DNA of 39,590 bases from Nitrososphaeria archaeon (GTDB lineage: Archaea; Thermoproteota; Nitrososphaeria; JACIWG01), in the NCBI GenBank assembly GCA_029776125.1, contig JARVJS010000006.1, forward strand, positions 1 through 39,590, written 5' to 3'. The translations under genes were made by a program, and so were the position numbers. This document shows, piece after piece, positions 1,739 to 18,989 of the stretch (its first letter is position 1; every line of letters begins with the position of its first letter). The notes below the pieces were generated by a model. The model saw nothing but the letters and a program-made list of their open reading frames with translations, was not told the DNA's origin and made no database searches.

Positions 1739-1740
1739 AA

Positions 1741-2349
1741 ATGGAAAATAAACTGGACATCAAAGAATTACTTGCTTTAATAATTTACAAAAATGATTAC
1801 ATTTACCCTTTACTAAAAGATACTGTTCAATGCGTTATTCTTGACATTATTTTTTCACGAACTATACTTGAGGGGAAACCTTCTGTGAAAATAAGCTATC
1901 AGGATTTAGCACTTCTCGCAGGTTGTTCTGTAGGAACAGTAAAGTCTGCCTTGAAGGATTTAATACTGTCTAGTTTAATAAAAATTGTAGGAAACCATCG
2001 CAGTAGAATAGCAAACGAATACGCTGTTAACCTAAAAATACCTGAAAACTTGAAACAATTTATGCCACTGCAGAGATTACCTTATAAAACAGTAAGCCAA
2101 ATTATATCAGGAAATAATAGAAAACCTGTTTTACAGTTAACTGCTGAAGGAATGGCAATAGTTAACTCTATTAAAGCAAGTATGAGTCCTCATGAAAGGG
2201 CTTTATATGAGAAAAAAGCAGTAGATGAACTAATAATTGAAAATGTTGAAATAAATGATGAATCAATAGACAGAAAAATTACTGAAATAATAATTAGAGG
2301 GTTTAGCAGTGAAAAACGAAAAAAATATCTTGTCTCAGTTGAGCAATAA
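1741..2349 (+). CDS. winged helix-turn-helix protein (resembles a replication-initiator N-terminal HTH)
   Basis: ISYQDLALLAGCSVGTVKSALKDL HTH followed by a wing ending in NEY. Confidence 0.6.
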   Translation: MENKLDIKELLALIIYKNDYIYPLLKDTVQCVILDIIFSRTILEGKPSVKISYQDLALLAGCSVGTVKSALKDLILSSLIKIVGNHRSRIANEYAVNLKIPENLKQFMPLQRLPYKTVSQIISGNNRKPVLQLTAEGMAIVNSIKASMSPHERALYEKKAVDELIIENVEINDESIDRKITEIIIRGFSSEKRKKYLVSVEQ

Positions 2350-2866
2350 AATACTTGCTACGCTTTTTGTTTCAGATAGAGAAGTTTATTTGTCTGAGCT
2401 AGCAAATAAGTTTAATACAACTGAACAAGAAATTAAACTGTGTGTTTATGAAATAGCAAATTATTTAGAACCATCGTCCTTAAAATTGTCAATAACAGAA
2501 AAGTCTGTTATGCTTACAGTTGAGAAAGAATATTTAGAGTATGTTCCTAAAGAAATCGTTTTTCAAACACAACTGTCAGAGCAAGCACTGGAGACTCTTG
2601 CAGTTATTATTTACAAACAACCCTGTACAAAACAGGAAATAGAGCAAATAAGAGGAGTAGACTGCGAAAAGACAATTCAAACTTTACTTAACACAGGATT
2701 AATAAAAAAGATAGCAACAATTTCTCAAACAGGCAATCCCGTGCTTTACAGTGTTACGGAGAAATGCGTACACGCTTTTGGTTTTAAGTCCTATGAGGAT
2801 ATGCTTCAATGGATTAAAACAAAAGTAGAACAGAAAGAAGAACTATCTACAGTACGAGAATTATAA
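2309..2866 (+). CDS. scpB: ScpB-family (KITE) SMC accessory subunit
   Basis: LSEQALETLAVIIYKQPCTKQEIEQIRGV...G.P.LY..T signature. Confidence 0.88.
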   Translation: MKNEKNILSQLSNKILATLFVSDREVYLSELANKFNTTEQEIKLCVYEIANYLEPSSLKLSITEKSVMLTVEKEYLEYVPKEIVFQTQLSEQALETLAVIIYKQPCTKQEIEQIRGVDCEKTIQTLLNTGLIKKIATISQTGNPVLYSVTEKCVHAFGFKSYEDMLQWIKTKVEQKEELSTVREL

Positions 2867-2895
2867 CTTTCCCCCTTTTTTATGAATATTTCAAT

Positions 2896-2925
2896 TTGAC
2901 AAAACTGTTTTGTTTTTGTTATAAT
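2896..2925 (+). promoter_or_regulatory. sigma70-type promoter for sbcD-sbcC
   Basis: TTGACA-N18-TATAAT with a TG extension, 35 bp upstream of the ATG at 2961. Confidence 0.75.
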
Positions 2926-2960
2926 ATAATTATAACAAACAAGACAAAAGGAGCATTTCT

Positions 2961-4598
2961 ATGGAAATTAAAAATGCAATTAAAAACCTTTCTGATGCTC
3001 ACTTTTCGGTCATTTTGGCAAACTTTAACATTGGAAAACTCATACATGACGCATCGGTTATTAATAATGTCTCTCACGACGAAGTAATAAGAAAACTAAG
3101 TGAACATAATTTTTCTGTTAATTATCTTTACAACTGTTACAGAGCATATCAAAAGTTTAAGACTGAAAAGTTTCTTAAGAGTTTGAGAGCCTCTTTTGAA
3201 GGGTTGCTTACTTGGGGATTTATTGTAAACAACATACTTGAAGCACCAGAGGGAGACACACCTGAAGCAATTGCTTACTGGGAAGACAAATTAAGAAGTG
3301 CAGAGAAAATTCTTTATACTATTGAATACAATGTAGTTAAAAACTTTCATGCACTTCCTGAAGCAGTTAAATCTCAGATAGAAGGTTTACTTATTAGCCT
3401 TGGATATGAACTTCCAAATGGCAAAGAAAAGGAAAAAATTAAAATTGCTCACATAGCAGACATTCACATATCTGAAAAACTTACTACTGCAGGGAAGATC
3501 GTAATCAATCCTACTACAGGTCGCAATCGTAGACTTGATGACATACAAAGGTGCTTAACCTATGCAGTAGATAAAGCAATAGAGCAACAGTGTGACCTTG
3601 CACTTATAACAGAGCCCTTTGATAGATACAATCCTACCCCAAATGAAATAGACGTATTCGTAAACGAAGTGCTAAGACTTGCAGAACACATGCCTGTAGT
3701 CATTGAGCCAGGCAATCATGGAATGGATAGAAACCGCATGAACGCATCAGTATTCGTTTTTCTTAAAGGATATAACAATATTTTCGTAGCCGATGAGCCT
3801 ACTACATTTTATTACGATGGCAAGGTGTTAACTACAGAACCAACTATGCGGTTTGGTAAAAAAGGTTCCTGTTTTGTCCATGTCCTTCCTTATCCAGTTA
3901 AATATGGAAACGATGGTGATCCTGCAGAGGCAATGAAAGAACACATAGAAAGGTTTAAAAAGATAAAATCAGAAAATGCTTTATCTGTTTTACTTGCTCA
4001 CACAACAGTCGCAGGCTCAGAGGGAGCAGACTATGTTAAGTTTCTTTCAAGAGAACCTGTGCTTAAAATAGAAGATTTAAGTGGTTTTGACTATGTAGCT
4101 CTTGGGCACATTCATAGATTTCAAAAACTTTCAGACCGCATATACTATGCAGGAAACATTGAAAGAATAGATTTTGATGAAGAAGGACAATCTAAAGGTT
4201 TCATTATTGCAACCCTTGATACAGAAACTAAAGACCTTACTGTAGATTTCATTGAAACTCCTGCAACAGAGATGAAAACTGTTTCAGTGGATATGTTTAA
4301 AGAGATAGATTGGGAGCAAAGGATAAACAGTAATGTTCTTTATCGTGTAGTGGGTGTTGTAAATTCGGAGTCAAAGGTAGAACTCAAAGAAAGTGTTACA
4401 AAATTTCAGGAAAAAGCACCTCTTCTTTTAAAAGTGCAGGTAATAAGTAAGGAAAAACAAAATATACTTGCTCAAAGAATAACAGATAGCATTCAAGATG
4501 AGGAAGCATTGATTGAGTTTCTCAAAGCTAAAGAAATTCCTGAAAATTTTATTCCTGAAATAGTTGAGTATCACAAAAACATAAAGCAAAACGCATAA
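2961..4598 (+). CDS. sbcD: SbcD/Mre11-like metallophosphoesterase nuclease with a ~155-aa N-terminal extension
   Basis: HIADIH, PGNH, LLAH, ALGHIH and YAGNIERIDFDE motifs; adjacent to a Rad50-like ATPase. Confidence 0.85.
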   Translation: MEIKNAIKNLSDAHFSVILANFNIGKLIHDASVINNVSHDEVIRKLSEHNFSVNYLYNCYRAYQKFKTEKFLKSLRASFEGLLTWGFIVNNILEAPEGDTPEAIAYWEDKLRSAEKILYTIEYNVVKNFHALPEAVKSQIEGLLISLGYELPNGKEKEKIKIAHIADIHISEKLTTAGKIVINPTTGRNRRLDDIQRCLTYAVDKAIEQQCDLALITEPFDRYNPTPNEIDVFVNEVLRLAEHMPVVIEPGNHGMDRNRMNASVFVFLKGYNNIFVADEPTTFYYDGKVLTTEPTMRFGKKGSCFVHVLPYPVKYGNDGDPAEAMKEHIERFKKIKSENALSVLLAHTTVAGSEGADYVKFLSREPVLKIEDLSGFDYVALGHIHRFQKLSDRIYYAGNIERIDFDEEGQSKGFIIATLDTETKDLTVDFIETPATEMKTVSVDMFKEIDWEQRINSNVLYRVVGVVNSESKVELKESVTKFQEKAPLLLKVQVISKEKQNILAQRITDSIQDEEALIEFLKAKEIPENFIPEIVEYHKNIKQNA

Positions 4599-4609
4599 AG
4601 GAGATAGGA

Positions 4610-6796
4610 ATGATTCCTATAAAGTTACAGCTAATTAACTTTTTGTCCCATAAAAATACAGAGATTGATTTTACCAATCTTAATGCAATTTGCCTATATG
4701 GTGAAAATGGTGCAGGTAAAACTTCTATTCTCGATGGAATGCTTTACGCTTTGTACAGTTACACTTCTCGTGGCAGAGATGACTCTCTTATCAAACTTGG
4801 TGAAAGAAAAATGCGGGTTGAATTTCTATTTGAAATGGAAGGCACACTTTACAAAGTTATTAAGGAAAAAGAAATAGGCAAAACTAAAAATACTTCTCTA
4901 TACATGGTTACCCCTGATGAAGAAGTGCTTGTTGCAACAGGTGAAAGGGTAGATGAATACATAGAAAGCCTACTTGGTATGAATTACGATACCTTTACCT
5001 CTACCTTTTTTTTGCTTCAGGATAATGCATACAGATTTATACTTGCTACACCCACAGAAAGATACAAAATTCTCTTTGACATACTTGGTTTAGAAGTGTA
5101 TCAAGAATACAGAAAAGTAGCCTCTTACTCAAAGAGAGAAGCAGAAGGAAAGGTTACATTTTTTAGTCAACAGATTGCAGATAGGGTAAAGATTGTAGAA
5201 GGTAAGGATAGTCTTGTTAAGAGTTTACAAAACGTAGAGCAGGAACTTTCACGAATTGCATCGATTCGTATAGAGTCGGAAAAACATTACATAGACAAAG
5301 AAAAAGACCTCTCAACTATATTAGCCCGAATTAAAGAGATACAAAAAATAACTTCAACAGACATAGAAAAGGAGATCCTTAACTCTCAGAAAAAAATAGC
5401 ACAGTATCAGGCTACTGTTCGGATGAAACCACAGGTTGAGGAAGCATTGAAGCAAAAAGCAGAGTTAAATCAGAAACTTACGAATCTGTTTGAATCGGAA
5501 CGAATCGTAATGAAGGAATATGATGAGGCTAAGGCAAAGTATAACGAAGTAGTAGAAAGAGAAAATAAGGTAAAAATACAGATAGAACAGATAGAAAGTA
5601 AAATTCGTGAGTATTCGATACGAATCGAACAGAGTAAAAAAACAGTAGCAGATTACGAAAAAGTGGCAAATCTACTCAATCAGGTTCCTTGCGGTGGAGT
5701 AGGACAGTATGCTACTTGTAGGCTTATTGCGAATGCTGTAGAGTCAAAAGAGAAAATTCCACAGGTGCAGAATACTATAAAGCAGTATGAGGAAGAAATA
5801 AAAAAATTTGAACAAGAAAAGAAATCTCTCACTCAAATACTTCAAAAAATAGCAAAGGAAAAGGAACAAGTAATACAGTATGGAAAATCTGTATCTCAGA
5901 AGGTAAAAGAACTTCAAGCACAAAAAGATGCTTTAACAAAACAGATAGAGGAAGTAGAAAAACTCTGTAGTATGCAGTCCGCAGTAGCCTCTGCGGAAAA
6001 GGCATTAGAGATGGAACAGGAAAGGCTTAAGCAACTTGAACAGGAAAAGGAAAAACTTGCACAAACAAAACAAGAGGAACAAATTCTTGCAAAGTTGTAT
6101 AAAGAAACTCTCATTCAAGTTGAAACACTAAAAAAACAAGTAACAGAGTTAAAGAATAGTGAAACTGAATTAATCAGACAAAAATCTCAGATAGAAAGTC
6201 AGATAGAACTCTGCAATAAAGCAGAACTGGAACTTAAGGAACTACAGATTCAACTTGATAAGGCGAAAAAGAATGCTTACATTTACTCAGTGCTTGATGA
6301 AGCATACGAAAAGATACCCAAAATTATGTTTACAAATTACATAGTTGCACTTGAAAGTAAAGTAAATGAAATACTAAACAGAATTTCAAACACGGGTATG
6401 CAAGTAGAACTTGTAACTGAAAGGCAGACTAAAACAACTAAAACTGTAAAAAACACTCTTGACATAATTGTTTCAGACATCATTGGTGAAAGACGCATAG
6501 AAAACTTCTCAGGTGGTGAAAAGACAAGACTCACACTTGCATTCACAGTTGCCCTAAGTGAACTTGCAAGCAAAAAGGCAGGACACAGAATACTCACGCT
6601 TGCTATTGATGAACCACCTGGACTTGATATGCAGGGTTTTAAGGATTTTGCATCAACCATAAATCAGTTGATTCAAGAAGGAATGTTTGCAAAGTGCTTT
6701 GTAATATCGCACAGTGGTGAACTTATTGATGAGTTTGAACAGAAAATAAAAGTGCAGAAACTAAATGGAAGCAGTGAGGTTATGGTTGAGGTGTGA
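4610..6796 (+). CDS. sbcC: SbcC/Rad50-like SMC ATPase
   Basis: NFLSH, Walker A GENGAGKT, Q-loop, long coiled coil, FSGGE signature, IDEP Walker B and ISH. Confidence 0.9.
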   Translation: MIPIKLQLINFLSHKNTEIDFTNLNAICLYGENGAGKTSILDGMLYALYSYTSRGRDDSLIKLGERKMRVEFLFEMEGTLYKVIKEKEIGKTKNTSLYMVTPDEEVLVATGERVDEYIESLLGMNYDTFTSTFFLLQDNAYRFILATPTERYKILFDILGLEVYQEYRKVASYSKREAEGKVTFFSQQIADRVKIVEGKDSLVKSLQNVEQELSRIASIRIESEKHYIDKEKDLSTILARIKEIQKITSTDIEKEILNSQKKIAQYQATVRMKPQVEEALKQKAELNQKLTNLFESERIVMKEYDEAKAKYNEVVERENKVKIQIEQIESKIREYSIRIEQSKKTVADYEKVANLLNQVPCGGVGQYATCRLIANAVESKEKIPQVQNTIKQYEEEIKKFEQEKKSLTQILQKIAKEKEQVIQYGKSVSQKVKELQAQKDALTKQIEEVEKLCSMQSAVASAEKALEMEQERLKQLEQEKEKLAQTKQEEQILAKLYKETLIQVETLKKQVTELKNSETELIRQKSQIESQIELCNKAELELKELQIQLDKAKKNAYIYSVLDEAYEKIPKIMFTNYIVALESKVNEILNRISNTGMQVELVTERQTKTTKTVKNTLDIIVSDIIGERRIENFSGGEKTRLTLAFTVALSELASKKAGHRILTLAIDEPPGLDMQGFKDFASTINQLIQEGMFAKCFVISHSGELIDEFEQKIKVQKLNGSSEVMVEV

Positions 6797-6885: not shown

Positions 6886-7941
6886 ATGAAGTCAGTAGTA
6901 TTTGAAGGAACAATTAAAACTGTATCACCATTGTTAGTTATGTTGCCTGAACCCAAAGGAGCACCAAGAAGTGCGGATAAGTCACCAAAGCATCCAAAAG
7001 CACCTGTTGTAGTAGGAGACATGGTAGTAGAAGTCCCTGTAATTCCGGGGAACACTATAAGGGGTGCTTTAAGAAGACAACTTGCTTTTAGTATTCTTTC
7101 AAAATTTAAAGACCTTGACTATTTAACCATTACCTTTCTTACTTGTGGTGGAGTAATAGACCCAAAAGAGGAAGACAAGGTTAGTCTTAAGCCAAATGAA
7201 GTATTTGAGTATGTCAAAGCAATTAAAGATAAAAACGTTGTTGCAAGTCTTTTCGGGGGATCTTTGCCAATAATAAAGATGATAAAAAGTAGCCTTATAA
7301 CAGAATTTGCTTGGGCAAAAGTAGGAGAAATTTATGATGGCTATCCTTATGTAGATGACATTATGCTGAAAAATATTACGTTTGCTAAGTTAGATGAAAC
7401 ATTAAGAAATTATGACATTTACAGTCTCCTTTCAGAAGAAGGCAAAGCAGAACTTGAAAAAAGATTTCAGAGCAAGAAAGAGAGAGTTGAATCAGGAGAA
7501 GAAAAAGGTAATGGTAAAAAACAAACAGGAGCAGAAACCGCAAACATTATTGGGTCTCTTGGTGATGCAGTAGCACCTAATGTTGAGTTTCAACACAGAA
7601 TAGAACTAACAGAGCCAACAGAAAGAAACTTAGGTGGTTTACTTTATGCTTTAAAAATGTTTGCCGAAAATGATGCTACTTTAGGAGGACATGTAAGGTT
7701 TGGTTTTGGAAAAGTTTATTGCGAATACAAAGTTTATGAAATAGAAGGAAAAGAAAAAAAAGAAATTGGAGATATTGCTGGTGGATGGGCACGCTTTGAG
7801 AATGAAGGTTTTGCTAGATTTTGTGAAATTAGTCCATCTTTAAAACCTTATTTGGCTACTTTTCAAGATTATTTTAGCAACTTAGAGAAAAAAGATATTA
7901 TTGTTGTTATTCCACAGGGGAAAAAGTCAAAAGGAGAATAG
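6886..7941 (+). CDS. csf2: type IV CRISPR backbone protein Csf2 (Cas7)
   Basis: VPVIPGNTIRGALRR, LTCGG, SLFGG and a RAMP G-loop LGGHVRFGFG; GGAGG RBS. Confidence 0.88.
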   Translation: MKSVVFEGTIKTVSPLLVMLPEPKGAPRSADKSPKHPKAPVVVGDMVVEVPVIPGNTIRGALRRQLAFSILSKFKDLDYLTITFLTCGGVIDPKEEDKVSLKPNEVFEYVKAIKDKNVVASLFGGSLPIIKMIKSSLITEFAWAKVGEIYDGYPYVDDIMLKNITFAKLDETLRNYDIYSLLSEEGKAELEKRFQSKKERVESGEEKGNGKKQTGAETANIIGSLGDAVAPNVEFQHRIELTEPTERNLGGLLYALKMFAENDATLGGHVRFGFGKVYCEYKVYEIEGKEKKEIGDIAGGWARFENEGFARFCEISPSLKPYLATFQDYFSNLEKKDIIVVIPQGKKSKGE

Positions 7942-7942
7942 C

Positions 7943-8614
7943 ATGAGATTTGAGGTAAGCTTTGTAAACAAACAAAAAGCAGGGCTTGTTGTTTTAAATA
8001 CTAATACTCCTTTTGATGGAATACTATCTTATTTTGCTTATTTAAGAAATAAGGAAAAGTATTCTGAACAGGAAGCGGTGAGACTATCTCAAGAGGAACT
8101 TCCTTTAAAGAAGTATATTTTTGAAGGAGATTTCTTTTATTTTGCAGGTATGCCTGATATATTCACAACTACTCCTGTTAAAGATTACATGTTTGGTTTT
8201 ACTAACAAAATCTCTAATCCACAAACATACGAAAAAATGGGAAGCGATTTTGTAAAAAAACTGTTTTCAGTAAAAAAACTTGAACAGGGTAGTGGTGGGA
8301 CTGGTCCATACAAATGCTGGCTTGTTACAGTAAAAGCGACTTATTTTAACAAAATATCTTATGTTGTTGAAGTGGAAAATGAAAGAGTAGATGAATTTAT
8401 TTCTCTTGTAAAGAACATTAACGCAATTGGCAAATATACAAGGTTTGGATTTGGTAGGTTTGAAGAATGTGAAATAGTTGAAACAGACAAGCCAATAAGA
8501 AGATATATTCCTGTTAATGCAGGAATAAAAACAGAAAAACAGTTCATTATGTCAGCAACAAGACCACCATATTGGGGGAGGGAAACAGTATTATGCGGAA
8601 TGGCAGAGATATAA
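7943..8614 (+). CDS. csf3: type IV CRISPR protein Csf3 (Cas5)
   Basis: PFDGILSY, AIGKYTRFGFG G-loop and C-terminal RPPYW; ATG at 7943 after AGGAG. Confidence 0.85.
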   Translation: MRFEVSFVNKQKAGLVVLNTNTPFDGILSYFAYLRNKEKYSEQEAVRLSQEELPLKKYIFEGDFFYFAGMPDIFTTTPVKDYMFGFTNKISNPQTYEKMGSDFVKKLFSVKKLEQGSGGTGPYKCWLVTVKATYFNKISYVVEVENERVDEFISLVKNINAIGKYTRFGFGRFEECEIVETDKPIRRYIPVNAGIKTEKQFIMSATRPPYWGRETVLCGMAEI

Positions 8615-9339
8615 CTAAGCCTGCTCAGTTGTTTAAAGTAGCAGGATTTGACCTTAAAGTTGACGATAAAAAGAAGCTATATCAAACTGATGAGAGGATT
8701 CTTTGTTGTATTTGCAGGCAAAAAGACGCAGAGGTGTATAAAATTAACGATGTATTTGGTGGTGGATTTACAAGTTTTAACTTATTTAGCCACAGTAAAT
8801 TTATTTGCAAAGATTGTGCAGGTTTGGTTTCTGATTTCTACAGAAAAAGTCTTGGTAAAGTAATAATTTACTTTAATCCTGAGACTTCTGAGGTGTATTA
8901 TTTCAAAAGTAAAGCAGACAAGACAGAATCAGAACAGGGAGAAAGCATACAGTTAGTTTTAAGCGACGAAGAGAAAGAATTTTGGAAAAACTTTTTACTA
9001 AATCCATCTAAAGGATACTTTTTAATTTCAATTCCTGCTCGTCAGAATGCTCATTATGTAATTTTTGCGCCTCTTTGTTATTCAGATGGAAATATTAAGA
9101 CCTATCAGTTCAACTATGGTGAAACAGTAATGAATGTTGAAGTAGAGGAATTAAATCAAATTATAAATTCAGAAGCTCAAATTAAACAATTAAAAGAACT
9201 CTTAAAATCCATCAAAAAAGACAAGGAAAAAAAGATTTCCATAGTAAAGGAATTAAATGAATTATACCACCAATTAAACATTTTAAAAAGTAAAGACACA
9301 TACTTGCTTTATCAAAATTTTAGATTATTCTTCAGTTAA
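8593..9339 (+). CDS. csf1: type IV CRISPR protein Csf1 (Cas8-like, Zn-binding)
   Basis: CCIC...F....ICKDC zinc motif and FLLNP..GYF; located within the csf operon. Confidence 0.78.
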   Translation: MRNGRDITKPAQLFKVAGFDLKVDDKKKLYQTDERILCCICRQKDAEVYKINDVFGGGFTSFNLFSHSKFICKDCAGLVSDFYRKSLGKVIIYFNPETSEVYYFKSKADKTESEQGESIQLVLSDEEKEFWKNFLLNPSKGYFLISIPARQNAHYVIFAPLCYSDGNIKTYQFNYGETVMNVEVEELNQIINSEAQIKQLKELLKSIKKDKEKKISIVKELNELYHQLNILKSKDTYLLYQNFRLFFS

Positions 9340-9351
9340 AGGAGGATACTT

Positions 9352-10080
9352 ATGAAATTTACAATTTCGTTTTATTGTAAAGAACCAATTGATGGAATAA
9401 ACAGTATTATGGCAGTTCAGGGGTGGATATATCGTAATATGGAAAAGGTTAATCCAGAACTTGCTAATTGGCTACACAATGAAGGAATTTTTAAGAATAA
9501 CAAAGTAATGAAACCAATTAATTTTTCACCTGTTTACAAAACGCAAAGAAAAAATATATATGGAATTAAAGTATCTACTTTGGTTACTAAAATTCAGCAC
9601 GCAATTGTAGAAATGTTAAATGATCCTGAACCTCTTGTCCTAAAGGGCAAAAATGAAAGAACCATTTCCTTAAATGTTAGTGAAGTAAAAATGAAGAAAT
9701 TGAGAGATACCAAGGTTTATTTTACTCTATCTCCAATTATCTTTCGTGACAAAGACGGATTTGTAAAACTTGATTTTACTAAAGAAGAAGACATTGAGAA
9801 AGCACGACAAATTATTGAACACAATCTTACATGGAAATATGAATGTATCTATGATGAAGTATGTCCATACAGAGTTTATTACTTTCAACCTAAAAATATG
9901 AAAACTGCCTTTTATACAAATTATAAAATTCAGAGTAAAGACATTAAAATTCCTTTAACAGGTTACACAGGAAATTTCACGCTTATAGCGGATCAATCTC
10001 TTCTGGATATGGCGTACTACTTTGGCATTGGTTATATGACAGGCTCAGGTTTTGGATGTATAGAATCTGAAGTAAAATAA
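9352..10080 (+). CDS. cas6: CRISPR RNA-processing endoribonuclease Cas6 (I-B-like)
   Basis: WLHNEG...NFS, TLSPI and C-terminal GIGYMTGSGFG G-loop; directly precedes the array. Confidence 0.88.
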   Translation: MKFTISFYCKEPIDGINSIMAVQGWIYRNMEKVNPELANWLHNEGIFKNNKVMKPINFSPVYKTQRKNIYGIKVSTLVTKIQHAIVEMLNDPEPLVLKGKNERTISLNVSEVKMKKLRDTKVYFTLSPIIFRDKDGFVKLDFTKEEDIEKARQIIEHNLTWKYECIYDEVCPYRVYYFQPKNMKTAFYTNYKIQSKDIKIPLTGYTGNFTLIADQSLLDMAYYFGIGYMTGSGFGCIESEVK

Positions 10081-10291
10081 AACTTTTGTTCTTTGACAAG
10101 GCTAATTGCATCAAACCTGTTTTCGAGATTATTTGGCATAAAATGTTGATTCATAAGAGAAAACAGACATATTTAAGCAAATAAAAATTTTTTGACTACA
10201 GGTTTGATGCAAAAAACATGAAAAAGCAGAGGGTAAACATAACAAAAAGTCTGCTTTTTCTTAAGTTTGCTATTTCCTATAAAAGTTGGGG
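10081..10291 (+). promoter_or_regulatory. CRISPR leader 1 with boxA-like 17-mer and 15-bp inverted repeat
   Basis: TTTGTTCTTTGACAAGG at 10085-10101; IR TTGCATCAAACCTGT (10106-10120) / ACAGGTTTGATGCAA (10198-10212). Confidence 0.7.
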
Positions 10292-10991
10292 GTTTTAAAA
10301 GAACCAGTATGGAGTGAAAACCATAGCCTCTTTAGTTTGGTGGTGGATAAGTAAAAAAGTTTTAAAAGAACCAGTATGGAGTGAAAACCTTTTTTGTCTC
10401 CTTCTGCTTTATAAAGTGAGTCATAGTTTTAAAAGAACCAGTATGGAGTGAAAACCGAACTCGACGATGACAGACGAGATGAAATAGAGCTCTTGTTTTA
10501 AAAGAACCAGTATGGAGTGAAAACAGCATGAACAAAAAAACGAGAAAAAAACATGCGAGCAAGTTTTAAAAGAACCAGTATGGAGTGAAAACCGGTCAGA
10601 TGGGCTCTTAGGGAAAAACTCAAAGACAGTTTTAAAAGAACCAGTATGGAGTGAAAACATGTTTTTTTAAGAGTGCAATGCACTCTCTAATATAGTTTTA
10701 AAAGAACCAGTATGGAGTGAAAACGTGAAAGAATACAGTAAAGAATATCAATCTCCAGAGGTTTTAAAAGAACCAGTATGGAGTGAAAACATATATAGAG
10801 GAGGTGAAAATGTCAAAAGTAATCAGAGTTTTAAAAGAACCAGTATGGAGTGAAAAGAGAGAACGGTGGTTGGAAAGGATAAGGAGACTGAAAGGTTTTA
10901 AAAGAACCAGTATGGAGTGAAAAGTTGACTGTTTCTGATGTGGTCACATTCTGTCAGATGAGTTTTTAAAAAAACCAATATGGAATGAATT
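10292..10991 (+). CRISPR. CRISPR array 1 (type IV): 11 repeats, 10 spacers of 36-39 nt
   Basis: 30-nt repeat GTTTTAAAAGAACCAGTATGGAGTGAAAAC at 10292, 10359, 10426, 10495, 10563, 10629, 10695, 10761, 10828 and 10895, with a degenerate terminal copy at 10962 that sets the + orientation. Confidence 0.98.
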
Positions 10992-11036
10992 TGCATTATA
11001 TATATTAGAAACAAAAAAAACAAAGGAGGAGATAAT

Positions 11037-13133
11037 ATGGAAATTTTAACTCAACTGTCAAAGAAAAAACTTATCACAAAAAGAAAAGAACAAGTAGAAC
11101 TATCTCAAAGCATATTGGATACCTTTGAGCAAAAGCGTATTGGTATTTTTGAAAGCCCTACAGGAACAGGAAAAACTCTTGCTTTTATGTCTGCGGTGGT
11201 GGAGTTTTGTCTTAAGAATTCTGCAAACAAGGTAATTATATCTACAAGTTCAAAGCAACTACAATCTCAAATGGTTCAGGAAATAGAAAAAATTAGCAAG
11301 GTTAAGGATTTAAGTAATTTTAGATATGTTATTGTTAAAGGTAAATCCAACTACTTACTCAGGAAAAAGATTGAAGAAAACCTTAAGAGATGTCTTAATC
11401 AAAAAAACTGTGAAATCTATAAAAAACTACTTAAAGCAGCTGACCAGGTTGATGGTGATATAGAGTTACTTTCTGATGAAATTATAGAACAGGTTAATTC
11501 AATAGCACCTGAAATGCTTGAAAGTTTAAGAACACCTGTAAGACTACCAATTTCTGAGACTGATTATGCATTGAAGGTTAGAGAACAGGCAGAAAAAGCA
11601 AATCTTATTATTGTGAATCACAGTTTATTTCTTTGTTATAACCTTCTTTTACAAAAAGAGTCAAATCCATTTTTTAAGACTTTTGCTTATGAATCTGAGA
11701 CACTTCCAGAAGACAGATCTATATCTGTAATTATAGATGAAGCACATACACTTGAAAATGTTGCTCAAAGACTTTTTGCTAAAGAAACTGCTATAAGAGA
11801 AATTCTCTTTGTGGCAGAACATTTGCTAAAAACAGTTTCATCTGTTAAATCTAATACAAAGTTTGTAATGGAGTATGGGAAAATAAAAGAATATATAGAA
11901 AACATAGCAAACAAAGCAAGAAAAGAAAAAGTTGAATACATACACATAACCAAAGACAAGATAAATTTTGATCCTGTAGTTAAATTAATAAGCACATATA
12001 TAGAATCATTTAAAATATTTGGCAAAAGGATTATGTCTCTTATTCCAAAAAATGATGATTTTATAAATCTAAAAGAAAAAGCATCAAAGATTAACGAAAT
12101 AATAAATGTTATCTACAATATTCTGAGAGAAAATAAACCTATTAAGAGTCACTGTTACCTCATTACTTTTTCTCCAGAAAAAAAATATCCTTCCTTTGCA
12201 GTAATAACACCCAGAATTGGTGGAGCTATGCACAATGTATTAGTAAACTTTGATTCCATAGTTCTTTTAAGTGGAACTTTAAGAGATCCAGACAAAGACA
12301 ACATTGATAATGATGCAGATAGGTTTAAAATTATCAGAACAAGACTTGCTATTGACTCATTAATTCCAAAGCGAAAAGAAGGTTTTTCTATAAATGCAAG
12401 AGTGTTTCAGGGATTTGATTTAAAAAAACTTGCTACTGTATATGTTTATCCAGAAGGACCATATCCACCTAAACTCAATGAAGAGAAAAACAAAGATAAG
12501 GATTACAGAGAATTATTAAAGAAAGAATATTTACTACCTCAAAAGGAAAGAATACTTTCTATCCTTAAAAACAGCAAAAAAGCACTAATTCTTACAACAG
12601 CTCACTATGAAACAGAGTTCTACAGAGAAATGCTTATGAATATTTCAGATAAAACAATAATAACTTACCCTGACAATGGTAGTTCTCTAATTCAAAAAGT
12701 AGAGGAATTTAAAAATTCTGATTCTGCAGTTTTTATTACAGCAAGTGCATGGGAAGGATTAGATGCTAAAATAGACACATTGATTATTTCCAAACTACCT
12801 TTTGCTTCTCCTAATGATCCATACTATATTGCATACCACGAAAATGAGAAAAACTATTTCCAAAGTTACTTATCAGAAAAAGACGCTCAAATAAGAGCAA
12901 ATTTAAGAGAACACATGAAAAGAGAATTTGATACATTTATTAAGTTTAGGCAAGGATTAGGTAGAGCAATAAGAGGAGGAGATGATTACTGCAATATTCA
13001 CATACTTGACCCAAGAGCATATGAACCAAAATATTATCAGAAGTTTTTACTTAATACTTATAAAGTTGCAGAGGTTAAGCAAAGAATAGAGGAAAGTAGT
13101 AAATCTGTAAGCAGTTCTGTTGTCGATATTTAA
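11037..13133 (+). CDS. dinG: CRISPR-associated DinG-family helicase (Csf4/CasDinG)
   Basis: RxxQ motif, ESPTGTGKT, KGKSNY, DEAH, LSGTL, WEGLD and QGLGRAIR; lies between two arrays. Confidence 0.9.
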   Translation: MEILTQLSKKKLITKRKEQVELSQSILDTFEQKRIGIFESPTGTGKTLAFMSAVVEFCLKNSANKVIISTSSKQLQSQMVQEIEKISKVKDLSNFRYVIVKGKSNYLLRKKIEENLKRCLNQKNCEIYKKLLKAADQVDGDIELLSDEIIEQVNSIAPEMLESLRTPVRLPISETDYALKVREQAEKANLIIVNHSLFLCYNLLLQKESNPFFKTFAYESETLPEDRSISVIIDEAHTLENVAQRLFAKETAIREILFVAEHLLKTVSSVKSNTKFVMEYGKIKEYIENIANKARKEKVEYIHITKDKINFDPVVKLISTYIESFKIFGKRIMSLIPKNDDFINLKEKASKINEIINVIYNILRENKPIKSHCYLITFSPEKKYPSFAVITPRIGGAMHNVLVNFDSIVLLSGTLRDPDKDNIDNDADRFKIIRTRLAIDSLIPKRKEGFSINARVFQGFDLKKLATVYVYPEGPYPPKLNEEKNKDKDYRELLKKEYLLPQKERILSILKNSKKALILTTAHYETEFYREMLMNISDKTIITYPDNGSSLIQKVEEFKNSDSAVFITASAWEGLDAKIDTLIISKLPFASPNDPYYIAYHENEKNYFQSYLSEKDAQIRANLREHMKREFDTFIKFRQGLGRAIRGGDDYCNIHILDPRAYEPKYYQKFLLNTYKVAEVKQRIEESSKSVSSSVVDI

Positions 13134-13262
13134 TAGTGTAAAAACATTTGAATATCGACAACAAGTTAAATATTGAATTTATAAGAAATAACAAAACTTA
13201 ATACGAGATTAAGTTTGTTCTTTGACAAGGTTAAATTTGTTAATATTTGTATGTATAAATGT

Positions 13263-13690
13263 GTTTTAAAAGAACCTATAAGGAGTGAAAATCGCTCAAG
13301 TTCATACTGAATTTTTATTTCTGTTTCTGTTTTAAAAGAACCAGTATGGAGTGAAAAGGTAATAAATTGTTCGTTTGTCAACTTTAAGCGGTTTGTATTT
13401 TAAAAAAACCAGTATGGAATGAAAATTAATTCTCTGATATTTTTTGTTGCAAAAAAGGACTTGTTTTAAGAAAACCAGTGTGGAATGAAAAACAATTCCA
13501 ATTTAAGACATTCATCCACTTGTAGCATAGTTTTAAAAGAACCAGTATGGAGTGAAAACCAGAAATCGAGCAGTGGCACGACGTATGTGTAGCGGGTTTT
13601 AAAAGAACCTATGAGGAGTGAAAATAATCTCGTTCCGACGGCTATTAGTGTTTTATTTATATTTTAGTAGAACCTATAAGGATTGAAATT
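13263..13690 (+). CRISPR. CRISPR array 2: 7 heterogeneous repeats, 6 spacers of 35-38 nt
   Basis: Repeats at 13263, 13329, 13397, 13463, 13530, 13596 and 13661; same family as array 1 but with CCAGTATGG and CCTAT(A/G)AGG core variants. Confidence 0.93.
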
Positions 13691-13705: not shown

Positions 13706-13735
13706 TTGACAATTTTGTCATAATTTTGTTATAAT
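13706..13735 (+). promoter_or_regulatory. sigma70-type promoter for the helicase operon, with overlapping IR
   Basis: TTGACA-N18-TATAAT with a TG extension; TGACAA-TT-TTGTCA inverted repeat at 13707-13720. Confidence 0.75.
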
Positions 13736-13761
13736 AATATATTAACCAAACAGGAGAAAAT

Positions 13762-15384
13762 ATGCAATATACTGAAGAACAACAAGCAGTCATACAAGAA
13801 ACTTTTAATACACCTGTTACTGTTGTTAATGCACTTGCGGGAACAGGAAAAACTACAACTTGTTTTGGAGTAATACAGGAAGCAGTAAGTAAAGGATATA
13901 GGACTCTTTACCTTGTTTTTAATAAGGCAATGCAGTTAGAGGCAGAGGAAAGGGCAAAAAGGTTAGGATTAAATGGCAGTGTTGAAATAAAAACTGTTCA
14001 TGCACTTGCGTATAAAAACATAGTTAGAACAGGTTATTTTAAAAATAAAACAGTAGGAAATATTAGAGTTAAAGATATAGCAGATACATTTGGAACTTTT
14101 GATTACGATAGGGCGTATTTTATACTGAAAATTTTTCTTGAGTTTCTTTACAGTGATTATTCTATTGAAAATGTTGATAAGTTTCTTTATGAACTTGAAC
14201 AATCAAGCACTTATTATGAACAAGCGATAAACAGATATTCCGTATCTGCTAAAGATTTAACTTTTTTGTATGACTACATAGACAATGGACAACTTCCTTG
14301 TCCTCATGACTTTTATCTTAAGAAATTTATTGACTTTTTAAAAGATGGAAAAACTTACTGCAAATACGACCTTGTTATTCTTGATGAATCTCAAGATGCT
14401 AATCCCTGTTTTGCCTCACTGCTTAAGCACTTAAGGGCTAAAAATTTACTAATGGTAGGTGATAGACATCAATGGATTTATTCATTCAGAGGAAGTGTGA
14501 ATTTGATAGAAGAGTTTGAGAATGCTAAAAGACTATATTTAACTCACACATTCAGATTTGACAACAACATTGCGGATCTTGCCAATAAAGTGCTTTCTAT
14601 AAAGGGAGAAAAACACCTACTTAAATGTAAAAAATCTAAAACAGTAAATAAAGAAAGAGCAATTATTAGTAGAACTAATTCTGAACTTTTAAGAAAATAC
14701 CTCTCTATGCCTGATACTCTTAAAAAACTTGTAGTCTTTGAAAGAGGCATAGAGGAAATAATTAAACTTCCTCTTACCATTGCACTTATACTTGAAAGAA
14801 AAATTCCATATCCATATTGTGAGAGAAATAATTTACAAGTATCAAAAGTAATAGACGAAGGATTTTATAAACTTTTTAAAAATCCTGTTGATTTAAATCT
14901 TTATGTTAGAGAACTTGAATCTTTAAGCAAAGAAGGACAATCGTCAAGCACTGAGACAGATACAGTATCTGCTTATAAGATTGCAGATGACTATGGAACG
15001 AAAAATTTAACTAAACTTATCCATAAATACTATGCTTCTTTAGAAGATGATATAGACGAAGAAAGCAAACTTTACATGGCTACTGCTCACAGTAGCAAAG
15101 GACAAGAATATAAAAAGGTTACACTTCTTGATGATTTTAGGAAATTTTTAACTGACAAAGAATATCCAATGATTGAAAACAACCTCTTTGCACTTGATAA
15201 AAGCTTTAAAGAAGTACTAAAAGAACGCCTTCGCTCTAATTTGCCTGAGTTAAATTTGCTTTATGTGGCATTCACAAGAGCATCTGATAGTATTGACTAT
15301 TCAAGTGAAGTGCAAAAAAACCTAAGAATCTTTGATTACTGCATAAAAAATGGCATTTCCATTAAGCAAAAGAAAGGAGAGTAG
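13762..15384 (+). CDS. UvrD-like superfamily 1 helicase
   Basis: TEEQ, ALAGTGKT, LVFNK, TVHALA, DESQD, VGDRHQWIYSFRG, TAHSSKGQE and LLYVAFTRA motifs. Confidence 0.9.
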   Translation: MQYTEEQQAVIQETFNTPVTVVNALAGTGKTTTCFGVIQEAVSKGYRTLYLVFNKAMQLEAEERAKRLGLNGSVEIKTVHALAYKNIVRTGYFKNKTVGNIRVKDIADTFGTFDYDRAYFILKIFLEFLYSDYSIENVDKFLYELEQSSTYYEQAINRYSVSAKDLTFLYDYIDNGQLPCPHDFYLKKFIDFLKDGKTYCKYDLVILDESQDANPCFASLLKHLRAKNLLMVGDRHQWIYSFRGSVNLIEEFENAKRLYLTHTFRFDNNIADLANKVLSIKGEKHLLKCKKSKTVNKERAIISRTNSELLRKYLSMPDTLKKLVVFERGIEEIIKLPLTIALILERKIPYPYCERNNLQVSKVIDEGFYKLFKNPVDLNLYVRELESLSKEGQSSSTETDTVSAYKIADDYGTKNLTKLIHKYYASLEDDIDEESKLYMATAHSSKGQEYKKVTLLDDFRKFLTDKEYPMIENNLFALDKSFKEVLKERLRSNLPELNLLYVAFTRASDSIDYSSEVQKNLRIFDYCIKNGISIKQKKGE

Positions 15385-16020
15385 ATGGAAATTAAAAATG
15401 CAATCATCTATTTTGATGGTGCTTGTCTTCCTTATAATCCCGGAGGAACTGCTACTTATGGATTTGTGGTCAAAGATACAGGTGGAAATACTGTTTTTCG
15501 TGGGAAAGGTGTTGCTGCAGAACAGGGAACAAATAACATTGCAGAGTATACAGGTTTAATTGAGGCGTTGAAGAAGGCTAAAGAGATGGGAGTAGAGCAG
15601 GTAAAAATCTATGGCGATAGCATGCTTGTTGTAAATCAGATTAATGGTGTTTATGAGGTAAGAAGCAAAAATATTTATCCTTTATATGAGATAGCTAAAA
15701 AACTTTTATCACAATTTTCTGATTGGAAAATACAATGGGTAGCAAGAAAAAATAATAAAGAAGCAGATAAACTTTCTACTGAAGCATTTATTGAATATAT
15801 AGAAAACAAAAACAGACAAAGAATTGAAAAGTTAAGAGAAGAACTTGTTATTTCTGAAAATGGTTGCTTTAAGATTAGAGATTATGTTATTACTCTCAAT
15901 CCTCCATCCTGTAATTGCCAATACTTTCAGAGAATAAACTCTTTTTCTCTGCTAAAGAAGGATAATATTGTAATCAAATGTAAACATATATTGTTTGTTG
16001 AAGAAAGCATTAGAAATTAA
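15385..16020 (+). CDS. rnhA: ribonuclease HI fused to a C-terminal SWIM zinc finger
   Basis: YFDGAC, TNNIAEY, GDSMLVVNQ and N.EADKL catalytic motifs; C-terminal CNC...CKH. Confidence 0.85.
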   Translation: MEIKNAIIYFDGACLPYNPGGTATYGFVVKDTGGNTVFRGKGVAAEQGTNNIAEYTGLIEALKKAKEMGVEQVKIYGDSMLVVNQINGVYEVRSKNIYPLYEIAKKLLSQFSDWKIQWVARKNNKEADKLSTEAFIEYIENKNRQRIEKLREELVISENGCFKIRDYVITLNPPSCNCQYFQRINSFSLLKKDNIVIKCKHILFVEESIRN

Positions 16021-16266: not shown

Positions 16267-18543
16267 ATGTCATTGTATGAGGACTTTAGTGAAAAAATTG
16301 CTATTGGAGCCTTATTTCAAGATATAGGCATTATAATTGCCAAAACAAAAGGAACTTGTTCTGATTACATAAAAGAAAGTAAAAATTGGCTTAATCAATA
16401 TTATCCAAAAGACGTAGCATCTCTACAAGAGTATGAGGACTTACTTTCCTTATTGAATGTTTCTGCTTTATCAGGGCAATCAAGTAATATAGACTACAGT
16501 CTAATAAAAAATTCTTTTCTAAAAATTGACTACAAAGAAAATTCCAGAGATTTATATTTTCCTTTAAGACCTTCAAAAGTAATCAATTCAACTACAAATA
16601 ATAAAACTTCTCAGAAAAATTACGAAGAATTATTTAAAAACTTTGAAAGTGATTTTTTAAAAATTAACAGATATAATGTTAATGCTTTATTATTTTTAAT
16701 TAAAAAACACTTCTCTTTTGTTCCTGTTAATGGTGATATTTCCTTTTATGACCAAAGTTGCTTTAATGCTCTATTAGCGTGTTGTTTATTTCACTATCTC
16801 AATAATAATTCAAAACAATTAAGTTTACCAATCAAAGATAGATTGAAACAAAGTTTAGACGAAAAAGCTTTCCTTCTCATAGGTGGGGATATATCAGGTA
16901 TTCAGAATTTTATTTATGCAGTTGCAACCTCTACAGGTGCTTTAAAATCCTTCAAGGGAAGATCCTTCTATCTTGAACTTCTCACTGAACATGTAGTCAA
17001 CGAAATACTTAACCAATTAGGACTGTTTCGTTTTAATATTTATTTTACAGGTGCAGGGCATTTTTACATAATTGCCTACAATACTGATAAAGCAAAGAAC
17101 ATTGTTAACAACATCAAAGAAAGAATCAATAATTTTCTCCTAAAAGAGTTTAATGGATTACTTCAGTTCCACATAGATTTCATTGAATTTCCAATAACTG
17201 CTTTCATGCAGAATTTAGACTTACAATTTATTGATTACTTTAATGACTTAAAAGGTAAACTTGAAATTTCTAAAAAGAAAAAATGGAATGATTTCTTAGA
17301 TAAAGTATTCATGGTTGAAACTCCTCATCCTGACTGCTATACTGAAGGGTGTTCGGTTTGTCAAAGAGAGGACAAGCCATTAACCTCAATAAGTAAACCT
17401 GAAAAAGAAGTTAAATACTGCTCTTCATGTTACAGTCAATACAAACTTGGAGAGCAACTAACTAAACTCTCTTTCCTTGAAAAAAGCATGCCCTGTATAT
17501 ATAAATACGATTTAGATAGTGAAACAAGAAATTCTGATTGCATTATTATAGATAATTCCTGTTATGTTTTTAATCCTGATATTGCAGTTAATTCCTCTAC
17601 AAATAAGCCAAAAAATAAGTATTTAATTAACTGTACTAACGCTTACTATTACAATTCAGAGGAATCAATATATTTCCCTGCCGGCATATACAACAATTCT
17701 GATATTGTAGAACTGTCCGATGTAAAAGGGTATTTTGGTAAAGATTTAGTTTCAGTTTTAAAAATGGATGTAGACAATTTAGGATGGATATTTTCTTTAG
17801 GGATACCTAAAGAGTATAGAACATTTACAAGAATGTCTAACATTTCTGAACTGCTTACTCACTTTTTCAAGTATTCAAGCAACTACATAGCCAAAGGAAG
17901 CGTTCCTACTCAGACAAGTCTTTTAAGGGATATTAAGGAAGGTTTTGAAAGAAGAATATCTATCGTTTACGCAGGAGGAGATGACTTACTTGTCGTAGGA
18001 CACTGGCTTGATATTTTAGAGTTTAGCATAGATATTGACAAATACTTTAGAATGCTTGCAGGTAATCCTAAAGTAACATTATCTGCAGGAATCTCCATAG
18101 GGCATCCAAAGTGTCCGTTTTACCTATTAACTCATACTGCAAACGATTTACTTGAGATAGCCAAAAAATCTAATCCCAATAAAAATTCTGTTACTGTGTT
18201 TGACGAAATCTTTACCTTTAAATGGGATGATTTTGAAATTGTAGAAAAATATATAAAACTACTAATTCCTTACTTTAAAAAAACAGAAAAGGAGATTATT
18301 CCTGTAGCACTGCCAAAGACCTTCTTTTACAGGTTTCTTGCAATTGCTAAAAACTTTGTTAATCACAACAGACTTGAAATATCCAAATTTATATACTTGC
18401 TTTCAAGGATTGGCGATAAAAACATAAGAAATACTCTTAAAACTGAACTTGAACCTCTCTTTACTTTAGACAAAAAAGAGTGGAAGTGCGTTTACTTTGC
18501 ATTAGTTTTATTGTTAATGAGTAGTTTAAGCAAAGAATCATAA
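16267..18543 (+). CDS. cas10: type III-A Cas10/Csm1 with degenerate HD motif and intact GGDD palm
   Basis: GDISGIQNFIY, KGRSFYLE, a Zn finger, KMDVDNLG and YAGGDDL; the N-terminus reads ALFQDIG instead of ALLHDIG. Confidence 0.93.
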   Translation: MSLYEDFSEKIAIGALFQDIGIIIAKTKGTCSDYIKESKNWLNQYYPKDVASLQEYEDLLSLLNVSALSGQSSNIDYSLIKNSFLKIDYKENSRDLYFPLRPSKVINSTTNNKTSQKNYEELFKNFESDFLKINRYNVNALLFLIKKHFSFVPVNGDISFYDQSCFNALLACCLFHYLNNNSKQLSLPIKDRLKQSLDEKAFLLIGGDISGIQNFIYAVATSTGALKSFKGRSFYLELLTEHVVNEILNQLGLFRFNIYFTGAGHFYIIAYNTDKAKNIVNNIKERINNFLLKEFNGLLQFHIDFIEFPITAFMQNLDLQFIDYFNDLKGKLEISKKKKWNDFLDKVFMVETPHPDCYTEGCSVCQREDKPLTSISKPEKEVKYCSSCYSQYKLGEQLTKLSFLEKSMPCIYKYDLDSETRNSDCIIIDNSCYVFNPDIAVNSSTNKPKNKYLINCTNAYYYNSEESIYFPAGIYNNSDIVELSDVKGYFGKDLVSVLKMDVDNLGWIFSLGIPKEYRTFTRMSNISELLTHFFKYSSNYIAKGSVPTQTSLLRDIKEGFERRISIVYAGGDDLLVVGHWLDILEFSIDIDKYFRMLAGNPKVTLSAGISIGHPKCPFYLLTHTANDLLEIAKKSNPNKNSVTVFDEIFTFKWDDFEIVEKYIKLLIPYFKKTEKEIIPVALPKTFFYRFLAIAKNFVNHNRLEISKFIYLLSRIGDKNIRNTLKTELEPLFTLDKKEWKCVYFALVLLLMSSLSKES

Positions 18544-18554
18544 GGAGGTAATAA

Positions 18555-18989
18555 ATGTCTAACTTTTATCAACATCACAAAAGAGAAGAAAAACCAATGG
18601 ATGCTTTCTTTGACCTATATTTGAAGGAATTAACAAAAAGTTCAAACCTAAAACTGCTTTCTACTGATTTAATTGTAAAGTTTGCTGATCAGGCAGGCAG
18701 AGAGTTTAGCAGAATACCTTTGTCTCAGATTAGGAAGTTTTTTAACACAGTAAAGAAAATGTCCTTAGCAGAAAAGTTTAATATTAACGATGTAATGTTA
18801 TTAAAACCTATTGTTGCCTACACTTACAGCAGAAATAAAAATAATAATAATTCAAAAGCATTTGATAGGTTTAAAAACTTAATGGATATATGTCTTGACC
18901 GAATTAAAGACGAAGCAGACTTTAAAAGATTTTTAACTCTGTTTGAAAGCATACTTGCCTATCATAAATTCTATGGAGGTAGAGAGTAA
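18555..18989 (+). CDS. csm2: type III-A small subunit Csm2
   Basis: SQIRKFF, LLKP.VAY and FESILAYHKFYGG. Confidence 0.92.
   Translation: MSNFYQHHKREEKPMDAFFDLYLKELTKSSNLKLLSTDLIVKFADQAGREFSRIPLSQIRKFFNTVKKMSLAEKFNINDVMLLKPIVAYTYSRNKNNNNSKAFDRFKNLMDICLDRIKDEADFKRFLTLFESILAYHKFYGGRE

Follow-up and report, generated by a model that had tools for sequence, protein, structure and literature searches.

The window analysed here is a stretch of 39,590 nucleotides (nt; contig JARVJS010000006.1) binned into a 167-contig metagenome-assembled genome (MAG) of an archaeon, and its subject is a type IV CRISPR-Cas locus at positions 6886-13690. The locus lies on the + strand throughout and consists, successively, of csf2, csf3, csf1, cas6, array 1, dinG and array 2. 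It is assigned by content to subtype IV-A of the official scheme, as set out in PMC8175902 and PMC12669027, because csf1, csf2, csf3, cas6, dinG and an array are all present. It represents a lineage of its own, either inside this subtype or next to it, and not a new kind of system. It is probably a working, nuclease-free CRISPR-Cas system of the DinG kind, which would belong to a divergent type IV lineage carried by hot-spring bacteria. Type IV systems are the least understood of the class 1 CRISPR systems and, to our knowledge, all mechanistic work on them has used a small number of proteobacterial loci, of the IV-A1 and IV-A3 variants, whose repeats form hairpins. No current view is overturned by the locus. 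A hot-spring lineage would, however, widen the set of systems for study with a canonical Cas6, unstructured repeats, a different gene order and signs of spacer change without adaptation genes of its own.

Gene content and place among type IV systems

All five proteins encoded by the locus are intact and match type IV profiles (PADLOC, Pfam and NCBIfam). The csf2 gene (6886-7941, + strand) encodes the Cas7 backbone subunit, 351 amino acids (aa) long, which is matched by the PADLOC model Csf2_0_IV (E 3e-38), by the Pfam family RAMPs over its cut-off and by TIGR03115 under its cut-off (E 2e-19). It shares 41 nt with csf3 (7901-8614, +), the gene of a Cas5 subunit of 237 aa counted from a TTG codon (Csf3_0_IV, E 1e-16; TIGR03116, E 3e-11); the true start of csf3 may lie downstream of this TTG. 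The csf1 gene (8593-9339, +) encodes the Cas8-like large subunit (Csf1_0_IV, E 2e-15; TIGR03114, E 1.5e-6). Its open reading frame (ORF) begins at TTG 8572, and ATG 8593 is the likely start; Met8 of the longer version aligns with Met1 of the Csf1 (25% identity, E 7e-20) of a related locus in the Nitrospirae MAG Kmv42, described below. Both cysteine pairs of the Csf1 zinc finger (CxxC...CxxC) are kept in the Kmv42 protein. Since the NCBIfam type IV models match below their cut-offs, the csf proteins have to be regarded as divergent.

The csf3 and csf1 genes are separate, as had been stated in an earlier, sequence-only reading of the window, and are ORFs in different frames. They overlap by 22 nt when csf1 is counted from ATG 8593 (22-43 nt over both starts). 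The same 22-nt overlap is present in the Kmv42 locus, and the pair is therefore formed by two genes and not by a broken fusion. Translation of csf3 and csf1 is probably coupled.

The cas6 gene (9352-10080, +) encodes a canonical Cas6-family endoribonuclease of 242 aa (TIGR01877, 72 bits against a cut-off of 58.65). Its top PADLOC model is Cas6b PDLC01782 (E 1e-25), and Cas6_7_IV matches at E 4.5e-13. With the Kmv42 Cas6 the protein shares 25% identity (E 1e-9). No real likeness to the IV-E Cas6 was found, and the model Cas6_1_IVE gives no match. Among solved protein chains there was none at E <= 0.01, the best being Pyrococcus furiosus Cas6 (3pkm, E 0.44); the Kmv42 Cas6 matches the P. furiosus enzyme at E 1.5e-7.

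The dinG (csf4) gene (11037-13133, +) encodes a CasDinG helicase of 698 aa, matched by Csf4_0_IVA at E 6e-64. In Pfam it is composed of the DEAD, ResIII and Helicase_C_2 domains, with no HNH and no HD. The Walker A motif (ESPTGTGKT), the DEAH box (D234, E235, H237) and motif VI (QGLGRAIR) are invariant among the four nearest relatives; identities to relatives are 86%, 44% and 41%, the remainder being at 30% or below. The IV-E profile Csf4_3_IVE gives only E 3e-9 and 34 bits, whereas the exemplar from Campylobacter concisus pICON scores 1014 bits.

The locus thus combines a Csf2-family Cas7, a Csf3 Cas5 and a Csf1-type large subunit (PADLOC), the set that characterizes type IV. It contains neither an effector nuclease nor an adaptation module: no HD, HNH or Cas3 domain was found in the five proteins with Pfam and PADLOC profiles. 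The gene and array order, and the lack of cas1 and cas2, are those given by the sequence-only reading; all seven parts stand at their expected places on the + strand, and profiles of Cas1 and Cas2, and likewise of Cas4, have no match on the contig or in the whole MAG.

According to PMC12669027, the 2025 official classification comprises three type IV subtypes, IV-A, IV-B and IV-C, and it is the helicase that defines IV-A. Taylor et al. 2021 (PMC8175902) list the IV-A set as csf1-3, cas6 or csf5, an array and dinG. The window has a DinG-family helicase with csf genes, a Cas6-family RNase and an adjacent array. The same paper gives the RNase of IV-A systems as Cas6, Csf5 or Cas6e, with reference to work on a canonical IV-A Cas6; the premise of the earlier reading, that only Csf5, Cas6e or Cas6f enzymes serve IV-A, was in this respect incomplete. 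Its view that the locus fits no described subtype cleanly holds for the finer variants compared here, as the locus falls outside them in the Csf2 and DinG trees, has an unfused csf3-csf1 pair and encodes DinG; it does not hold for the official scheme, in which the locus is plain IV-A.

The phylogenetic comparison was based on three trees (LG+G4), two of them quick searches, in which many rows have an unusual amino-acid make-up. The references are named in the supplement of PMC7038947 and their sequences were taken from the plasmid collection: Pseudomonas aeruginosa pPYO_TB and Geoalkalibacter pGSUB1 for IV-A1, a P. paraeruginosa plasmid for IV-A2, Klebsiella pneumoniae pPMK1-NDM for IV-A3 and C. 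concisus pICON for IV-E. Each variant is accordingly represented by one or two references (two for IV-A1, one each for IV-A2 and IV-A3), and IV-B and IV-D are absent. The IV-C reference is a locus from an archaeal genome of the phylum of the MAG (412-4148 of a 4.3-kb contig), with a complete set of Cas10-like, Cas11, Csf2 and Csf3 genes. In the careful Csf2 tree of 49 rows, rooted on IV-C (support as ultrafast bootstrap / SH-aLRT), the window falls in a clade of seven rows (97/98) and Kmv42 in one of nine (98/90); together with eight unnamed rows they form a group of 24 (90/95). The remaining clades are IV-A1 (six rows, 100/99), IV-A2/A3 (six rows, 100/98) and IV-E (four rows, 100/100), and the IV-C clade is separate (100/99). 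The backbone between the window/Kmv42, IV-A1, IV-A2/A3 and IV-E groups is unresolved. In a quick Csf2 tree of 115 rows, IV-A1 and IV-A2/A3 lie across a branch with SH-aLRT 95 from the window, IV-E and IV-C. A quick DinG tree of 72 rows gathers all type IV DinGs in a single clade (SH-aLRT 98) that excludes housekeeping DinG, and within it the window and Kmv42 share a clade of nine rows (SH-aLRT 99), distinct from the IV-A1, IV-A2/3 and IV-E references. The Csf2 and DinG phylogenies, which had been advised as a check, therefore put the window outside the IV-A1, IV-A2/A3 and IV-E clades.

The IV-A1 loci of pPYO_TB and pGSUB1 share with the window the five protein roles, an array and the lack of cas1, cas2 and a nuclease. 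In the pGSUB1 locus (Geoalkalibacter subterraneus), too, the array stands between csf3 and dinG; its repeats have 37 nt and its spacers about 37 nt, so that the long spacers and the array between the csf genes and dinG, previously thought unusual, are not peculiar to the window. There are, however, differences relating to (i) gene order, csf5-csf1-csf2-csf3 in IV-A1 and csf2-csf3-csf1-cas6 in the window; (ii) the RNase, Csf5 in the former and a canonical Cas6 in the latter; (iii) the repeats, which are hairpins of -9.3 and -11.7 kcal/mol in the IV-A1 references against -0.6 kcal/mol in the window; and (iv) Csf2, which lies outside the IV-A1 clade formed around the two named references. As a side observation, pGSUB1 carries seven copies of a GGGGGATAAyACGGAC-like iteron block at 18587-19103, downstream of its IV-A1 locus and near trfA.

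The IV-A2 and IV-A3 variants are described in Pinilla-Redondo et al. 2020 (PMC7038947) as encoding Cas6f or Cas6e, having csf1 lost or replaced by a Cas8-like gene, and carrying hairpin repeats of I-F or I-E type. The window differs from both in the position of its Csf2 relative to the one reference of each, in the presence of Csf1 and in the unstructured repeat.

Comparison with the putative subtype IV-E (Pinilla-Redondo et al. 2020) gives a mixed picture. The pICON locus resembles the window in having Csf3 ahead of Csf1, in a weakly structured 30-nt repeat with the ends GTTyTAAA...AAAAC and in spacers of 35-38 nt, and the repeat and spacer sizes of the window, also presented earlier as unusual, thus have a precedent. 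Its Csf2, like that of the window, lies outside the IV-A1 to IV-A3 clades. In contrast, Csf3 and Csf1 are fused in one protein in pICON and encoded by two genes in the window, the IV-E Csf2 clade is separate, and the Cas6 proteins belong to unrelated families. Neither the csf3 nor the csf1 product matches Csf3-Csf1_0_IVE at E <= 0.001, and the two are split in Kmv42 as well. The csf3-csf1 pair, with its 22-nt overlap in two distant loci, is plausibly an unfused counterpart of the IV-E fusion.

The putative subtype IV-D, in which RecD stands in place of DinG, does not apply, the window helicase being DinG; the UvrD-like gene that follows array 2 matches RecD_0_IVD over 37 residues only (E 1e-7). 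IV-C is distinguished by a Cas10-like HD large subunit and Cas11, neither of which was found in the locus. The IV-A system of Mahella australiensis, compared by description only (PMC8175902), has a canonical Cas6 with a His/Tyr active site instead of Csf5, and the window likewise has a canonical Cas6. Pinilla-Redondo et al. (PMC7038947) also report that Cas6 is polyphyletic in type IV and that Cas6b is found with IV-C. What sets the locus apart is a combination: its Csf2 and DinG belong to a deep lineage, its csf genes run csf2-csf3-csf1, its Cas6 is Pyrococcus-type or Cas6b-like, its repeat is unstructured and dinG is followed by a second array. No description of this lineage was found in the literature covered; the supplement trees of PMC7038947, Moya-Beltran 2021 and Taylor 2019 lay outside its scope and may bear on it.

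Relatives of the lineage are rare. A word-indexed search of 5.8 billion proteins with Csf2 gave 2608 candidates, two of which had E <= 0.001: the query itself and one protein 82% identical. A HMMER search of 1.84 billion cluster representatives gave 110 at E <= 0.001 and 20 at <= 1e-10, the nearest outside its own cluster being 39% identical. The nearest Csf2 proteins come from metagenome assemblies, two of them being NCBI MAG proteins annotated as hypothetical (Nitrospirae bacterium and Dictyoglomus turgidum). For the 39%-identical Csf2 and the 41%-identical DinG alike, the record gives a contig of 9191 nt, and the two probably belong to one locus. Ten Csf2 representatives without a label all match the generic type IV model of PADLOC, and none is assignable to a subtype. 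With the window protein as query, no close Csf2 relative was found in species genomes; a metagenome scan and two viral scans returned distant DinGs only, with no Csf2 alongside. The plasmid collection held nothing close, the best Csf2 being 23-27% identical over part of the protein (tblastn, E 1e-4 or worse) and the best DinG 26% identical.

The most informative relative is the Nitrospirae MAG Kmv42, whose contig JACUUX010000069.1 encodes a Cas6b-like Cas6, csf2, csf3 and csf1, followed by an array of three repeats and dinG. Its proteins are annotated as hypothetical, and the system is unpublished as such. The order csf2-csf3-csf1-array-dinG, the csf3/csf1 overlap, the Csf1 zinc finger, the nine-row DinG clade and the 24-row Csf2 group are common to both loci, and this order is thus not peculiar to the window. 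The two loci differ as follows: protein identities amount to 25-33% only, cas6 precedes csf2 in Kmv42 and follows csf1 in the window, no array stands after dinG in Kmv42, and its repeat has 37 nt, ends in GTTGAAAC and folds at -6.7 kcal/mol.

A wider interpretation may be drawn from these comparisons. The window, Kmv42 and some 15-25 metagenomic Csf2 clusters might form a subtype-level lineage of thermophile DinG type IV systems, as deep as IV-A1, IV-A2/3 and IV-E, which would keep the unfused csf3-then-csf1 state ancestral to the IV-E fusion and combine a Pyrococcus-type Cas6 with unstructured repeats; its spacers would be supplied in trans and would target not plasmids but the modules by which integrative elements integrate and excise. 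Taken as a whole, this interpretation is tentative and rather doubtful.

Arrays, spacers and the proposed mode of action

In array 1 (10292-10992, +), 11 repeats of 30 nt are separated by 10 spacers, which are 36-39 nt long. Its eight leader-side repeats are identical, two carry one change and the last carries seven. Array 2 (13263-13690, +) has seven diverged repeats, which differ from the consensus at 4, 1, 4, 5, 0, 5 and 9 positions in order, and six spacers of 35-38 nt. The repeat and spacer lengths given by the earlier reading (30 nt and 35-39 nt) were measured again in both arrays. A 27-nt core of the repeat, searched with at most three mismatches, has 14 forward sites, all on this contig and none elsewhere in the MAG; in reverse orientation, or as a control read backwards, it does not occur, and the repeats are consequently not a chance pattern. 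The repeat is unstructured, with a minimum free energy of -0.6 kcal/mol (z 0.53).

The leader of array 1 was placed at 10081-10291 (+), because the degenerate last repeat marks the opposite end of the array; it contains the 21-nt motif TTTGTTCTTTGACAAGGCTAA at 10085-10105. The leader of array 2 (13134-13262, +) has a copy with one change at 13214-13234. This leader motif, TTTGTTCTTTGACAAGGYTAA, stands 187 nt before the first repeat of array 1 and 29 nt before that of array 2. It includes TTGACA, and 20 of its 21 bases are common to both leaders; a -10 box to go with it was not found. In the window, scans for Rfam families and tRNAs gave no matches.

By analogy with the studied IV-A systems, the following sequence of events is proposed. 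Both arrays would be transcribed on the + strand, and the canonical Cas6 would cleave the unstructured 30-nt repeats, leaving CRISPR RNAs (crRNAs) with an 8-nt 5' handle from the 3' end of the repeat. Csf1 with its zinc finger, multiple copies of Csf2, Csf3 and probably Cas6 would assemble on the crRNA, and the complex would bind matching double-stranded DNA of mobile elements. DinG, whose ATPase motifs are intact, would then be recruited and block transcription or maintenance of the target without cutting. New spacers would be supplied in trans by a Cas1-Cas2 module encoded elsewhere. Both the swapping of Cas6 in type IV and acquisition in trans are already documented. If the proposal applies, the lineage would help to address Csf assembly on crRNAs with another 3' end, the recruitment of DinG and the service of type IV arrays by a foreign Cas1-Cas2. 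DinG-dependent transcriptional interference has been described for IV-A in PMC8175902 and PMC12669027.

Four metagenome runs from hot springs, which belong to two studies, contain parts of the locus; no RNA run with the locus was found among the sequencing runs. In X1 and X2, the best of the four, cas6 shows 11 differences from the window in 940 bases, and dinG shows 5 in 2055. A 37-nt spacer absent from the window lies upstream of the repeat at 13596 in the dominant X1 strain (depth 52.9) and in an X2 contig (depth 7.5); the contigs that show it cover the sequence beyond array 2 and run from there into this spacer. Further novel spacers adjoin the first repeat of array 2, and many contigs of the runs stop in array 1 with foreign flanks and other spacers. 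These sequence differences fit a turnover of spacers in a population with near-identical cas genes. The strain differences might, however, also have arisen by recombination, deletion or assembly artefacts at the repeats, in which case no trans-acting Cas1-Cas2 would be needed. The contigs do stop within repeats, the shorter side of the key joint measures 29 nt where the tool advises 30, and arrays commonly undergo deletion between repeats. On the other hand, the variants hold spacers that the window lacks, not merely fewer of them, and the same variant occurs in two runs. This origin is therefore regarded as possible, though clearly less favoured than turnover.

Type IV systems are known for a bias toward mobile elements, and the few approximate matches of the spacers would agree with this. 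Two of the 16 spacers resemble mobile-element DNA, in three of 101 genomes of the likely host lineage. In two genomes the spacer at 13493-13529 has a match over 33-34 of its 37 nt (per-genome E values 4e-7 and 7e-7). One of these sites is located in ORF-free DNA, 414 nt upstream of a gene for a tyrosine integrase, and the second falls within the 3' portion of an NTPase_1 gene, with a tRNA about 240 nt away; this pattern resembles an attachment site. Of the 38 nt of the spacer at 13359-13396, a 30-nt stretch matches at 28 positions (93%); this match falls within an excisionase-type (HTH_17) gene that neighbours a SocA-like gene. The array 1 spacers have only short or low-complexity matches in the 101 genomes (best E 6e-4).

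Several observations weigh against a working system supplied in trans. The spacer matches are approximate and lie in relatives rather than in proven targets, and the two sites of spacer 13493-13529 are homologous to each other and so not independent. None of the spacers matches the MAG. The search of plasmid and phage collections, suggested by the sequence-only reading, brought no target: plasmids gave no match, and phages chance-level similarity only (E 0.2 or worse). Profiles of Cas1, Cas2 and Cas4 have no match across the 167 contigs of the MAG, this one included. A promoter scan found no + strand consensus sigma-70 site in either leader; in all it gave 24 sites against 28.7 expected, which is no enrichment. 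Array 2 may in part be poorly processed, because its repeats have diverged. The evidence from the runs, finally, consists of contigs that break at repeats, with the short joint mentioned above.

The same observations may be taken as signs of a decaying remnant which neither acquires spacers nor interferes: neither the contig nor the MAG yielded adaptation genes, six of the seven array 2 repeats are off the consensus by 1 to 9 positions, and no exact protospacer was found in the MAG, the phages, the plasmids or the 101 genomes. Decay is nevertheless considered very improbable. All five genes are intact with their catalytic motifs kept, across samples the spacers vary but the gene sequences stay about 99% conserved, and the leader-side repeats of array 1 are identical.

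Assignment of the host

The origin of the contig is of importance for the missing adaptation genes. The 16S and 23S rRNAs of the MAG are archaeal. The phosphoglucomutase and NrdD encoded on the contig are only 37-39% and 31-33% identical, respectively, to genes of the MAG genus, and the MAG has its own copies of both on other contigs. In contrast, they are 64% and 71% identical to proteins of one bacterial genome, and the NrdD of a Thermodesulfovibrionales MAG shares 68% identity with that of the contig. As these are bacterial-type second gene copies, the contig is, from its sequence, most likely bacterial and mis-binned into the archaeal MAG, or else was horizontally acquired. Tetranucleotide and GC composition do not separate it from the remainder of the MAG. 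The archaeal relatives were considered as host lineage and dropped in view of the dissimilar phosphoglucomutase and NrdD copies and the bacterial best relatives.

Since the contig is probably mis-binned (MAG completeness 85.8%), the absence of Cas1, Cas2 and Cas4 from the MAG says little about the true host. The type IV repeat, at up to three mismatches, was found neither in the 100 relatives of the MAG that were searched nor in the 101 genomes surrounding the bacterial relative. A different repeat makes up the arrays linked to Cas1 in the genus and family of the MAG. A Csf2 profile match was obtained in one of the 101 genomes, on a contig of 585 nt. The proposal of the sequence-only reading that the locus borrows the I-B adaptation machinery of its host consequently finds no support: no cas1, cas2 or cas4 was found in the MAG, the repeat was found in neither genome set, and the MAG is probably not the host.

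The neighbouring type III-A module and other surroundings

A type III-A module (16267-23282, +) with cas10, csm2, csm3 and csm4 is located downstream of the type IV locus; no csm5 was recognised. Within its gene row lie a mini-array of three repeats of an unrelated 36-nt type with two spacers (20920-21103), a gene for a CARF/PD-(D/E)xK nuclease (21129-22307) and one for a type III-A Cas6 of 321 aa (22317-23282; PADLOC, E 5e-83). The arrays described above could mainly or also feed this Csm module, with the type IV Cas6 producing the Csm-loaded crRNAs and the two systems acting as one unit. The csm genes start 2.6 kb downstream on the same strand, their own array is very short, neither system has cas1 or cas2 nearby, and spacers of 35-39 nt with unstructured, GAAAAC-ending repeats are often common to type III and type I. 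However, the III-A module has a Cas6 and a repeat type of its own, the two Cas6 proteins of the window show no real likeness, and the Kmv42 contig (10.7 kb) carries a type IV set with no type III gene. Feeding of the Csm module is therefore judged unlikely, and a separate type IV system is preferred.

Between the type IV and III-A genes lie the genes of a UvrD-like helicase (540 aa) and of an RNase HI fused to a SWIM zinc finger (13706-16020, promoter included). Both follow a promoter at 13706-13735 that matches the sigma-70 type at 12 of 12 positions and has an extended -10. Along its entire length the helicase shares 25% identity (E 2e-32) with the product of a UvrD-like gene located within a few kb of the pICON IV-E locus, and it may be a recurring neighbour of the IV-E and window type IV loci.

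Beyond the III-A set follow topB, nrdD, nrdG, dut, a DUF5131 gene and a TaqI-like restriction-modification system (35996-39205, - strand). In the latter, a methylase (Eco57I/TaqI_C) and a controller-like gene (HTH_3) accompany two RE_TaqI paralogues, of which one is full-length and the other weak. Neither an integrase nor a relaxase nor a tRNA was found in the window, which reads as a defence island. Immediately upstream of csf2 lies an sbcD/sbcC-like pair (2961-6796), the sbcC-like product of which has weak matches to LmuB-type and other SMC-like defence ATPases and may serve either housekeeping or defence.

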